Source: an uncultured virus (IMG/VR IMGVR_UViG_3300050509_000576)
Taxonomy: Duplodnaviria > Heunggongvirae > Uroviricota > Caudoviricetes
IMG/VR virus record: IMGVR_UViG_3300050509_000576
Reading direction: 5' to 3' (one strand)
Length of the DNA stretch: 20,000 nt
In this document: piece after piece, positions 12,048-14,420 of the stretch
Layout: each line of letters begins with the position of its first letter
How positions within the stretch are numbered: the stretch's first letter is position 1
Made by a program: the position numbers and the translations under genes
The notes under the pieces: model-generated
Told to the model about the DNA's origin: nothing
The model's database searches: none
Seen by the model: the letters and a program-made list of their open reading frames with translations, nothing else

Positions 12048-12311
12048 TTACTCTCGTGCCCAGTACGCTTCGCAGGCGTCGTAGGTTGCTTGCTCGTGGG
12101 CGATAGCGTTAGCCACGCGCTTGGGTATCAGGTACGGTAGCAGCTGCCTGGCTGCGGTGACGTTGTGGCGCAGCGTGTCGGCGTCGGGTGGGTACATGCC
12201 GTCGCTGTCGTGGGCGAGAATGTCCAAGTAGACCAGCACGTCCGCCAGGTTGCGGCTGGCGTCCTGCAGGGCCTGTTTGATGTCGAGGAGCGGATACGAT
12301 TGCCTAGGCAT
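12048..12311 (-). CDS. Hypothetical protein
   Basis: AAGGAG RBS; bounded on both sides by the repeated intergenic module. Confidence 0.65.
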   Translation of the reverse strand: MPRQSYPLLDIKQALQDASRNLADVLVYLDILAHDSDGMYPPDADTLRHNVTAARQLLPYLIPKRVANAIAHEQATYDACEAYWARE

Positions 12312-12357
12312 ACGGTCTCCTTGTGGTGGGGGGCGGTTCGCGCTCGCCCCGGATGAT

Positions 12358-12639
12358 TTACGCCGCGATGATGGCGGCTTCGCGTTTCCGTGCCTCTAAG
12401 ACCGTGAGGTCCGTCCCGGCGGCCAGGTCTGCGAGCCGCTGCTCGGCCGCCACATCAACTCTCCCAAAAAGCATCAGTGCTGGGGCATCGGCGTCCGTGA
12501 GGCGCTGGACGTGGTCGTCGTCGCTCACGAAGTACACCTCGCCGCGGTGGTTCCGGAGCGCCGTGCCGTACGTGCCCTGAAACGTCGCGTGATAGGCGAT
12601 GCGCTTGTGCGCAGTGGGGGTCTGTGGTACTGTCTGCAT
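12358..12639 (-). CDS. Hypothetical protein
   Basis: GAAGGAG RBS before ATG 12639; an alternative start at 12675 overlaps the upstream stop. Confidence 0.6.
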   Translation of the reverse strand: MQTVPQTPTAHKRIAYHATFQGTYGTALRNHRGEVYFVSDDDHVQRLTDADAPALMLFGRVDVAAEQRLADLAAGTDLTVLEARKREAAIIAA

Positions 12640-12671
12640 GAGCTTCTCTCCTTCCGTTGGGGGTGGCTCTC

Positions 12672-12950
12672 TCATGGGGAGGCGTCCGGCTTGAGCGTGG
12701 CTGCTGGCCGGGCGCCTTCACTTCCGTCGATCTGCTCCCAGGACGCGTCTCCCTGGAGCCTCTCTGCCGCGTGCGCCTCGCACAGGTGCACCACGTCCAG
12801 GTCTGGCCATGGCATGTAGCCTGGCTTCCGTCGCAGCGTGACACTGCCTCTCGCCGGACAGCGGCGCGTCCGCACATACGATACCCGCTGTCCGTGGCGC
12901 TCCCCATGGTCGGTGCTGTACTCTTTCCGTTCACAGCGCGGCTGCTTCAT
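12672..12950 (-). CDS. Hypothetical protein, possibly zinc-binding (C...C...CxxH)
   Basis: AAGGAG RBS; RC, RRC and LCEAH residues. Confidence 0.6.
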   Translation of the reverse strand: MKQPRCERKEYSTDHGERHGQRVSYVRTRRCPARGSVTLRRKPGYMPWPDLDVVHLCEAHAAERLQGDASWEQIDGSEGARPAATLKPDASP

Positions 12951-12969
12951 ACGTTGCTCCTTGTCGCGT

Positions 12970-13039
12970 CCAGGCTTGTGACAGGCGCCTCACCATGAGG
13001 CGGTCGCATTAGGCAGGCACGAGGCCTGCTCACTCTGCG
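12970..13039 (-). ncRNA. Twister-ribozyme-like RNA, circularly permuted (type P5-like), partly degenerate
   Basis: Minus strand CGCA GA GUGA GCAGGC-CUCGU-GCCUGC C UAA UGCG AC CGCCUCA-UGG-UGAGGCG CCUG UCACAAGC CUGG contains the twister core: UAA, P2 GCA/UGC, GA-GUG and L4 UCACAAGC with a CAC/GUG pseudoknot. Confidence 0.7.
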
Positions 13040-13249
13040 TTATTCAGGGATATACACACTGGCCGTTAAGCCGTGCTGATACACCGGCGTGTGCCAGTGG
13101 GTGATCGTCTCGACGGTGCAGGTGCCGTCTCGCAGGGCAATCCCGTAGGTGCGGGGGGCTATTTTCCAGCAGTGCAGAACGCGCAGGCGGCTCACCGTGC
13201 TCGGGGAAAAACTAAACGTTTCGCCGACTTGTAAGCTTTTAAAGGTCAT
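13040..13249 (-). CDS. Small hypothetical early protein (MTFKSLQVGETF...)
   Basis: AAGGAG RBS before ATG 13249; F..L..GETF start common in small phage proteins. Confidence 0.6.
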   Translation of the reverse strand: MTFKSLQVGETFSFSPSTVSRLRVLHCWKIAPRTYGIALRDGTCTVETITHWHTPVYQHGLTASVYIPE

Positions 13250-13524
13250 GGGGCGTCTCCTTGGTGTCATCTGAGGTTTATGCTGCCTGTGAACAGCTGC
13301 GCATCCCGCGCAGGCTCATTACACCATGGTGTCGTCGTCGCCAGGGTCCTCGCGTTCGATGCTCTCCTAGTGGGGCGTTTGTCTTCAGTAGCCTTCGAGG
13401 GGGGTGTGCCTCTTCTCGCCCTGGCTCTGTCTTTCCCTCCCCGGTTTCGTAAGTGCCGGCATGCATGAGGTACTCAACTCTGTAGCGCCCATCGCGTTGT
13501 CAATCAACCAACCAACTGAAAGTA

Positions 13525-13603
13525 ATCTTACACCCAATTGGGAAGTATGTCAATGCCAATAGGAAACTATTTTACACCCAAACGGAAAATATTATGCTAT
13601 ACT
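13525..13603. promoter_or_regulatory. Divergent promoter pair with three operator-like repeats
   Basis: Leftward TTGACA(13553-13548)-17-TAAGAT(13530-13525). Rightward extended -10 TGcTATACT (13595-13603). CCAAnnGGrAAnTAT-like repeats start at 13534, 13556 and 13578. Confidence 0.75.
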
Positions 13604-13626
13604 CTGTTCTGAAAGGAGAGCAGGTT

Positions 13627-13863
13627 ATGGCATGGAATATTGCAGAACGTGTTGAGGCATGTCGCAAAGCCAAAGGCTGGACGCGTAGCGAGTTGGCGCG
13701 ACGGGCCAAGCTGAATCCTACCCACCTCTGGAAAATTCTCAGTGGGCAACGCCCACGCATCGAAGCTGTGACGGTCAAGAGTCTTGCGCGTGCCTTACGC
13801 GTGCCAACCGATTACTTATTAGGGATGGATCTCGAAGAGGATAACGAGGAGCCGATGGTATGA
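13627..13863 (+). CDS. XRE-family HTH regulator (Cro/CI-like)
   Basis: RVEACRKAKGWTRSELARRAKLNPTHLWKILSGQR...LARALRVPTDYLLG; GAAAGGAG RBS. Confidence 0.9.
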   Translation: MAWNIAERVEACRKAKGWTRSELARRAKLNPTHLWKILSGQRPRIEAVTVKSLARALRVPTDYLLGMDLEEDNEEPMV

Positions 13864-14420
13864 GTGTTTCGCTTGAGGAGCGTTTTTGGAACCACGTGCA
13901 GATCTGTGAGCATGGGATCGAATGCGGCGAGTGTTGCTGGCCGTGGCGCGGCGCGCTGAGTAATGGCTATGGGGTGTTGTCTGTCTATGATGCCGCGCGG
14001 TACCAACAGACCAAACTGCCTTCCAAGAACATACTTGCCCATCGCCTCGCCTGTGAAATCGCCCTTCATGCCCACATCCCTACTGGCCTCTACGCTCTCC
14101 ATAAATGTAACTATCGCGCGTGTTGCCATTTCCATCCTCGCCATGTCTATATAGGTGATTCCCTACAAAATATTCACGATGCTATTGCGGCAGGTACGCA
14201 TATAAGCCTCCATCAACGAGGCGCTCCTCATTGGCGAAAACGTGATCCTGAACGCAGCAAACAACACAAGCCTGTGTTAAAACATCCTTTTGAAAAGATT
14301 CAACGTATACGTTCTCTTGCCTATGCAGGATTTCCTGTTGGGGTTATCGCTCGTATCTTTGGCTTGCGTGAAGGTTATGTATCGGCGGTAGTCTTGCGCA
14401 AAATACGCCTTGATAGCTAA
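13860..14420 (+). CDS. HNH (HNH_3-type) homing endonuclease
   Basis: RFW..V...CWPWRGA...GYG...AHR......IP.GL..LHKC....C...HVYIG....N..D; lower GC; ATGA overlap with the regulator. Confidence 0.85.
   Translation: MSVSLEERFWNHVQICEHGIECGECCWPWRGALSNGYGVLSVYDAARYQQTKLPSKNILAHRLACEIALHAHIPTGLYALHKCNYRACCHFHPRHVYIGDSLQNIHDAIAAGTHISLHQRGAPHWRKRDPERSKQHKPVLKHPFEKIQRIRSLAYAGFPVGVIARIFGLREGYVSAVVLRKIRLDS

Follow-up and report, generated by a model that had tools for sequence, protein, structure and literature searches.

The window, by which we mean the whole 20,000-nt stretch of DNA analysed here, comes from an uncultured member of the Caudoviricetes and, judged by its gene content, is part of a temperate-type phage. 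A replication initiator, a terminase and a portal are recognised in it by PHROG search, and one relative (G003) is classed as a provirus. The region of interest is a leftward early operon, divergent from a helix-turn-helix repressor gene on the plus strand at 13630-13863 (PHROG 8, E 8.7e-13; Pfam HTH_31 and HTH_3 over cut-off). A sigma-70-type promoter match on the minus strand at 13553-13525 (10 of 12 consensus positions) would drive this operon, with 2 such sites found, by consensus match only, against 0.6 expected. Three operator-like repeats with 22-bp spacing (13512-13592; repeat family D1) are situated between divergent promoter matches and, together with these promoters and the repressor, likely form a lysis-lysogeny switch. 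Read leftward on the minus strand, the unit then comprises a non-coding leader of ~190 nt (13518-13326), an upstream RNA element (13325-13263), a ribosome binding site (RBS) that abuts the P1 stem of this element and is conserved in all four phage types compared below (13262-13257), a 69-codon ORF that is the first gene of the operon (13249-13040), the ribozyme flagged in the original prediction (13039-12970), a second RBS (12962-12957), a 92-codon ORF (12950-12672) and several small ORFs. PHROG and Pfam searches gave no family for either the 69-codon or the 92-codon protein; the Atlas matches of the former all fall below 0.9, and its single distant relative is found in L195 (44% over 41 aa). 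The flagged ribozyme had been placed in an early phage operon, between a stop codon and an RBS, and both sequence and gene context agree, as it starts right after the stop of the first gene and ends 8 nt before the RBS of the next. Three further gene boundaries on the same strand (12334-12309, 12045-11995 and 10853-10811; families D2, D4 and D6) have in common a short motif ending in the RBS, and by eye a G+C-rich hairpin stands before each motif, where the boundaries further upstream carry ribozymes.

On its sequence, the flagged element is a real type-P5 twister homologue, situated in a soil phage between two of its early genes. A covariance-model search of the minus strand returns a significant match to Rfam Twister-P5 (RF02684) at 13039-12970, with 39.6 bits against a gathering cut-off of 37.6 (E 3e-05). 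This alignment covers the full model (positions 1-58 of 58) and is the sole one over the cut-off, with two listed at E<=5 within the 20 kb, and a descriptor search of the window found no further hammerhead or P5 twister. The element was originally described as "permuted twister-like"; it is indeed a twister with its parts in permuted order, but this order is simply that of the known type P5, and the element passes the Rfam cut-off. Types P1, P3 and P5, the U-A cut site and catalysis by G and A are reviewed elsewhere (PMC5408937). All of the structural parts listed earlier lie where they had been placed. The RNA begins and ends at the P5 position, and both P1 and P3 form closed hairpins. P2 (13039-13036 with 13008-13005) had been correctly located but has 4 bp and not 3; within the segment 13039-13005 it encloses G13035, A13034, one T1 strand and the 6-bp P1 hairpin (13029-13013), as read from the sequence, the Rfam alignment and computed pair probabilities (0.97-1.0 for P1, 0.76-0.95 for P2). 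The predicted scissile bond, U13011/A13010, is the one proposed before and agrees with its place in the Rfam alignment, and the predicted general-acid adenine (A13010) and general-base guanine (G13035) are both present. Pseudoknot T1 (13033-13031 with 12980-12978) consists of three Watson-Crick pairs (G-C, U-A and G-C), flanked by the A·A bases A13034 and A12977, and P3 is a 7-bp hairpin (13002-12986). The remaining segment (12985-12970) holds P4 and the 8-nt loop L4 (12981-12974), which bears the partners of both T1 and T2. P4 (12985-12982 with 12973-12970) retains three of its four pairs, including the closing G-C, with U12983·U12972 at pair 3. Only one of the two pairs of T2 (13004-13003 with 12975-12974) can form, C13003-G12975 next to the mismatch A13004·C12974.

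That this resemblance is a product of chance or of faulty assembly is a notion to which we attach next to no weight. The folding energy of the element alone is unremarkable (z -0.89), but the Rfam match over the cut-off, an orthologue with compensatory changes and an identical sequence in several assemblies refute it. The element is identical to that of the window in three of five metagenome loci, and single contigs from runs X5, X7 and X8 span it with 0 differences among the matches listed; these contigs and identical loci possibly stem from one sampling campaign, run X6 has no coverage of the element, and contig G001, being the same DNA over 12213-13900, is not an independent copy. The deviations belong to DNA of more than one assembly and are not an assembly slip.

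Three deviations from the twister consensus had been pointed out, and only one of these, A13004 with its broken T2 pair, appears to matter much. Two sources bear on this, namely a pattern scan of viral contigs that allowed A at the first T2 position and returned at least 123 stretches with at least 111 distinct cores, and published mutants of the rice twister Osa-1-4 (PMC5113685), a different scaffold without P3. At the base of P1, the A·C formerly counted as a defect is normal, because among the 111 listed cores the P1 segment begins and ends with A/G in 73 cases and with A/C in 4; flaws in P1 are, moreover, tolerated in natural twisters (PMC11662667). The U·U in P4 is a genuine deviation, seen in none of the 111 listed cores (G-C in 104, A-U in 6, U·C in 1), but is harmless on its own in Osa-1-4, where relative activity is 1.00 (PMC5113685). 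The isolated P4 hairpin is computed at +1.6 kcal/mol, and the computed probability of its closing pair is 0.005 vs. a median of 0.95 for the listed viral cores, a value that equals or exceeds those of only 11 of the 111 listed references, several of these 11 being misread where a shifted P4 met the fixed register used.

The change in T2, for which A in place of G had been flagged, is present and serious. The first T2 position is G in 111/111 of the distinct viral cores among the matches listed, and T2 has been named the most critical long-range contact of the twister (PMC5408937). In Osa-1-4, G13 is one of four positions at which every substitution lowers relative activity below 0.20: G13A gives 0.17 relative cleavage after 2 h at pH 8.0, G13U and G13C give 0.03, and the doubles G13A+G22U and G13A+C33U (change at the P4 pair) both give 0.04, with G13A restored to 0.89 by the pair-restoring C31U (PMC5113685). 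The wild-type rate is quoted as 1-10 per min (PMC5113685); by our own conversion with a simple co-transcription model, 0.17 at 2 h would translate to ~0.003 per min, a figure carried across scaffolds. In a fast twister both T2 pairs would be Watson-Crick or G·U, and A13004·C12974 is neither. The copy at 13039-12970 is thus probably strongly slowed, and we class it, by sequence, as a damaged homologue and not as an active ribozyme. The earlier suggestion that it "may be slowed or decaying" agrees with the broken T2 pair and with the G of the orthologue. The suggestion of self-processing of the early mRNA stands in so far as a twister does sit in the early operon, but, as the T2 change is a serious deviation, efficient cutting at 13011/13010 is doubtful.

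These comparisons also bear on the opposite view, which we consider unlikely, that the element is a nearly normal twister in which stacking of the 7-bp P3 on T2 compensates for the mismatch and permits efficient cleavage at 13011/13010. Approximately 94% of the natural twisters tested were active, those with one PK1 (T2) flaw cleaved to a mean of 0.53 vs. 0.76, their values being bimodally distributed, flaws in PK1 and P4 together were tolerated, and P3 may, according to the authors, stabilise PK1 (PMC11662667). The catalytic bases and T1 are also intact in the window. However, most non-wobble PK1 mismatches greatly lowered cleavage in the same set (PMC11662667), and both the Osa-1-4 doubles (PMC5113685) and the very low computed probability of P4 closing argue against it. 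With a confidence somewhat better than even, we favour the reading that the P5 copy cuts too slowly to matter within the lifetime of the mRNA, and that a second cut of the transcript would be rare.

The locus was also compared with that of related phages. The leader is common to four phage types, those of the window, L197, L324 and L201 (the last also recovered as L199 and L323, the three being one phage), with 128/155, 110/155 and 133/155 nt of 13480-13326 identical to the window in L197, L324 and L201, respectively. It has no Rfam family, and its motif was found in 0 stretches of genome contigs and had no match among GenBank phages. Changes on both sides were counted in 9 of 60 predicted pairs of the leader stems, one of these in the ribozyme P3 (four sequences only), and a near-palindromic stretch (13477-13466, minus strand) conserved in all four types is a possible protein-binding site. 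The leader might act as a small RNA once released, or as an antitermination signal; a leader peptide was ruled out, as the frame is stopped early in L197.

After ~30 nt of common upstream sequence, the phage represented by L199, L201 and L323 carries an orthologous P5 twister (44.9 bits) with G at the T2 position. Three of 27 pairs differ on both sides between the window and L201, two in P1 and one in P3, a number reached by 66 of 500 shuffles and, with two sequences, not significant alone. As this orthologue has G, the A of the window is very probably a derived state and G the ancestral one. Any decay must be recent, since no damage is seen in P1, P2, P3, T1 or the two catalytic bases. In L197 and L324, whose records are 35-36% complete, there is no P5 match over the cut-off, and L197 has by eye a plain hairpin at the boundary after gene 1. 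As two of the four types are without a P5 twister, the slot is dispensable in this phage group, which fits drift in the window. In L201, the spacer before the orthologous twister (1839-1897) resembles the 3' end of the 69-codon ORF of the window and the preceding gene is unrelated, a pattern that we interpret as a remnant of gene exchange at this boundary.

The A·C mismatch might instead be kept by selection in a tuned slow cutter, with partial or pH-dependent cleavage setting the ratio of long to short message, although we judge this improbable. When protonated, an A+·C pair resembles a G·U wobble in shape. In Osa-1-4, a G·U at the first T2 pair retains 0.97, and A·C, at pH 8.0, exceeds G13U and G13C (PMC5113685). 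The same A·C is also seen once in an unrelated phage, and tuned slow cleavage is therefore possible. A complete scan for the A form, with P2 and L4 fixed in the pattern and other A forms uncounted, gave 69 stretches, two of which are twisters, this DNA (L178) and L190. The latter (L190:1497-1561) is a type-P1 twister (RF03160, 58.7 bits, below the 67.2 cut-off), otherwise perfect, which has the stop-ribozyme-RBS layout and is again the downstream ribozyme of two, with a canonical twister, also of type P1 (426-476), ~1 kb upstream. The remainder of the core in the window is intact. Nonetheless, only two of the 69 stretches, this DNA included, are twisters, whereas cores with G-C number at least 111; mutations from G to A are common, the orthologue has G, A13004 is shared by no close relative and a second lesion, the U·U, fits drift. 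Damage remains our preferred explanation for the mismatch. Several type-P5 matches can occur on one viral contig, with 4-5 seen in L029/L045, L047 and L009/L010, ~350-950 nt apart, among the matches listed.

Absent from the original prediction is a second element, a type-P1 twister-like RNA at 13325-13263 on the minus strand, which lies one gene, or 224 nt, upstream of the P5 twister and was recognised by descriptor match, fold and conservation. It is made up of P1 (13325-22 with 13266-63), P2 (13318-15 with 13275-72), P3 (13312-13298) and P4 (13297-94 with 13285-82), pseudoknots T1 (13292-90 with 13269-67) and T2 (13314-13 with 13287-86), and a predicted cut site at U13321/A13320; the candidate general acid (A13320) and general base (G13271) are present. 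All 22 pairs are Watson-Crick, pseudoknots and P3 included, and are pairable in 3/3 sequences. The first T2 pair is inverted (C-G), so that CC is paired with GG and the conserved GC of the 5' T2 strand is absent. Minimum free energy folding recovers the twister secondary structure, to which two U·G pairs are added on P4 (z -2.5, 4/200 shuffles), and a type-P1 descriptor, written after the element had been seen, has one match in the window and any match in 1 of 60 shuffled windows. The Rfam type-P1 model (RF03160, cut-off 67.2) does not list the element at E<=10 in G001, G002 or G004, the best Rfam score is for twister-P3 (16.7 bits, E 1.2), and the element is not assigned to RF03160. An alternative register with a GC/GC T2, built by hand, was rejected because L4 would then have 10 nt and P4 would lack its closing G-C. 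Further inverted-T2 twisters were sought among at least 116 viral matches, where six candidates appeared, none with a full P4, and among at least 120 genome matches, where of the matches listed only L424 pairs in both P2 and P4; its pairs are largely wobbles and it was taken for chance. Natural twisters in which the first T2 pair is inverted did not turn up in a narrow search of the literature. The upstream P1 of the window reaches across the RBS (pair probability >0.9), but L197 and L324 do not conserve this extension, and computed access to the RBS is only partly better after the cut; gating of the RBS by P1 thus lacks support as a general mechanism. The P3 loop (13307-13303, minus strand) is the reverse complement of that in L197 and L324, and looks like a hairpin micro-inversion.

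Conservation speaks for a function of this upstream RNA. Outside P3, 54/54 core nucleotides are identical in L197 and L324, in contrast to leaders that are only 83% and 71% identical to the window, although recent exchange of the block could also explain this identity. Covariation is seen in one P3 pair only and is not significant (342/500 shuffles). In L201, a type III hammerhead occupies the slot of the upstream element, between the same closing strands and before the same RBS; it has a full core and scores 43.1 bits, below the 48.5 cut-off (E 2.8e-06). These observations weigh against the view that both elements are inactive relics, with no self-processing of the early mRNA and the upstream fold kept as a structure before the first RBS, since the conserved core includes the catalytic A and G and the pseudoknots, and since a full-core ribozyme sits in the same slot in L201. 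This view, to which we give a minor share of our belief, can draw on the failure of RF03160 to detect the upstream element, on the want of a second inverted-T2 example among the listed viral and genome matches, and on the inverted pair G13C/C31G, which retains 0.06 in Osa-1-4 (PMC5113685). Other values from the same mutant set are more favourable: A28C, which corresponds to the C that the upstream element has at the A·A partner position, has 1.00, and adding C25U to C31G lifts activity from 0.11 to 0.31, the top of the 120 values listed for that row (PMC5113685). A U occupies the equivalent of position 25 in the upstream element of the window, and the P4 extension is worth 2.0 kcal/mol. It may be that G at position 31 lets the upstream P4 zip into the loop, and that U at position 25 weakens this misfold. 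The chances that the upstream RNA is self-cleaving seem near even. Slightly short of even is our confidence in the fuller proposal that it is an active, naturally rewired twister, which tolerates the T2 inversion by means of a U at the first T1 position, is swapped with a hammerhead between phages and releases a conserved, folded leader of ~200 nt. It is a better candidate than the P5 copy for cutting the transcript.

While the anatomy, the orthology and the rarity of the T2 change are shown above, the rates and roles that follow are inferred. The P5 element would be an inherited twister that marks where the first gene in a temperate phage's early operon ends. In an intact copy, P1, P2 and P4 would fold together with pseudoknots T1 and T2, and the U/A bond would be cut, G13035 serving as the general base and A13010 as the general acid, to leave a 5'-OH, hairpin-capped message for the next genes; this chemistry is established, and the role in the phage is our proposal. 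A13004 breaks one of the two T2 pairs and the U·U weakens P4, and the damaged copy would now act chiefly as a set of hairpins in front of an RBS, much as plain hairpins do at neighbouring boundaries. A cut at 13010 makes no difference to computed access to the downstream RBS. The upstream twister-like RNA would be the more likely cutter of the transcript, removing the ~200-nt leader. Were both cuts made, they would yield this leader, a 310-nt single-gene piece and a downstream 5'-OH message behind hairpins. The effect of a 5'-OH end on the stability of a message, positive or negative, depends on host nucleases. No support was found in this analysis for a circular form of the 310-nt piece that the two cuts would release.

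A type-P5 twister in a phage operon is common, as shown by the at least 123 stretches recovered with one narrow pattern. What this locus offers is a natural experiment, in which four phage types have one promoter-leader and differing ribozyme slots: the first slot holds a twister variant or a hammerhead, and the position after gene 1 holds an intact twister, a damaged twister or none. These differences allow a direct test of the effects of phage ribozymes on message stability and translation. If the upstream variant does cut, the twister consensus has to be widened, a class of phage twisters escapes Rfam, and the downstream A·C copy could be a deliberately slow partner.

Set beside known systems, the flagged element has the element order, P5 termini, P1-P4, T1 and catalytic A and G of the type-P5 twister (RF02684, clan CL00120), and differs from it in the A·C at the first T2 pair and the U·U at P4 pair 3, each found in 0/111 of the listed cores. 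Its placing between stop and RBS is usual: 71 of the 111 listed cores have a stop codon immediately 5' and 78 have an SD-like 4-mer in the 30 nt on the 3' side, counts taken with no shuffled control. It is therefore a further type-P5 twister, probably damaged, of known family and layout. The upstream element has the canonical order, spacing, 8-nt L4, G and A of the type-P1 twister (RF03160, Osa-1-4), and differs in its inverted first T2 pair, a T1 of U-A/C-G/A-U and a C at the A·A partner position. With both elements present, the 69-codon gene is bracketed by two ribozyme motifs; the same two-motif layout occurs in the window, around 13249-13040, and in L201, with its hammerhead and its twister. 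Such a layout has been described in prophages since 2011, where clustered ribozymes flank single genes or short blocks and cutting of long transcripts was proposed (Perreault et al. 2011, PMC3088659). Twisters and hammerheads are also reported in shared contexts, their function being regarded as an open question (PMC6765202). Like the prophage clusters described in PMC3088659, our locus places a pair of self-cleaving motifs around a single short gene of a phage polycistron, and, as in the contexts described there and in PMC6765202, gene identity varies between relatives and ribozyme classes interchange in one slot. Unlike those clusters, it is built of twisters and not hammerheads, one damaged and one off-consensus, and is known here from sequence alone. 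What is new here is the upstream type-P1 twister-like RNA, which Rfam misses.
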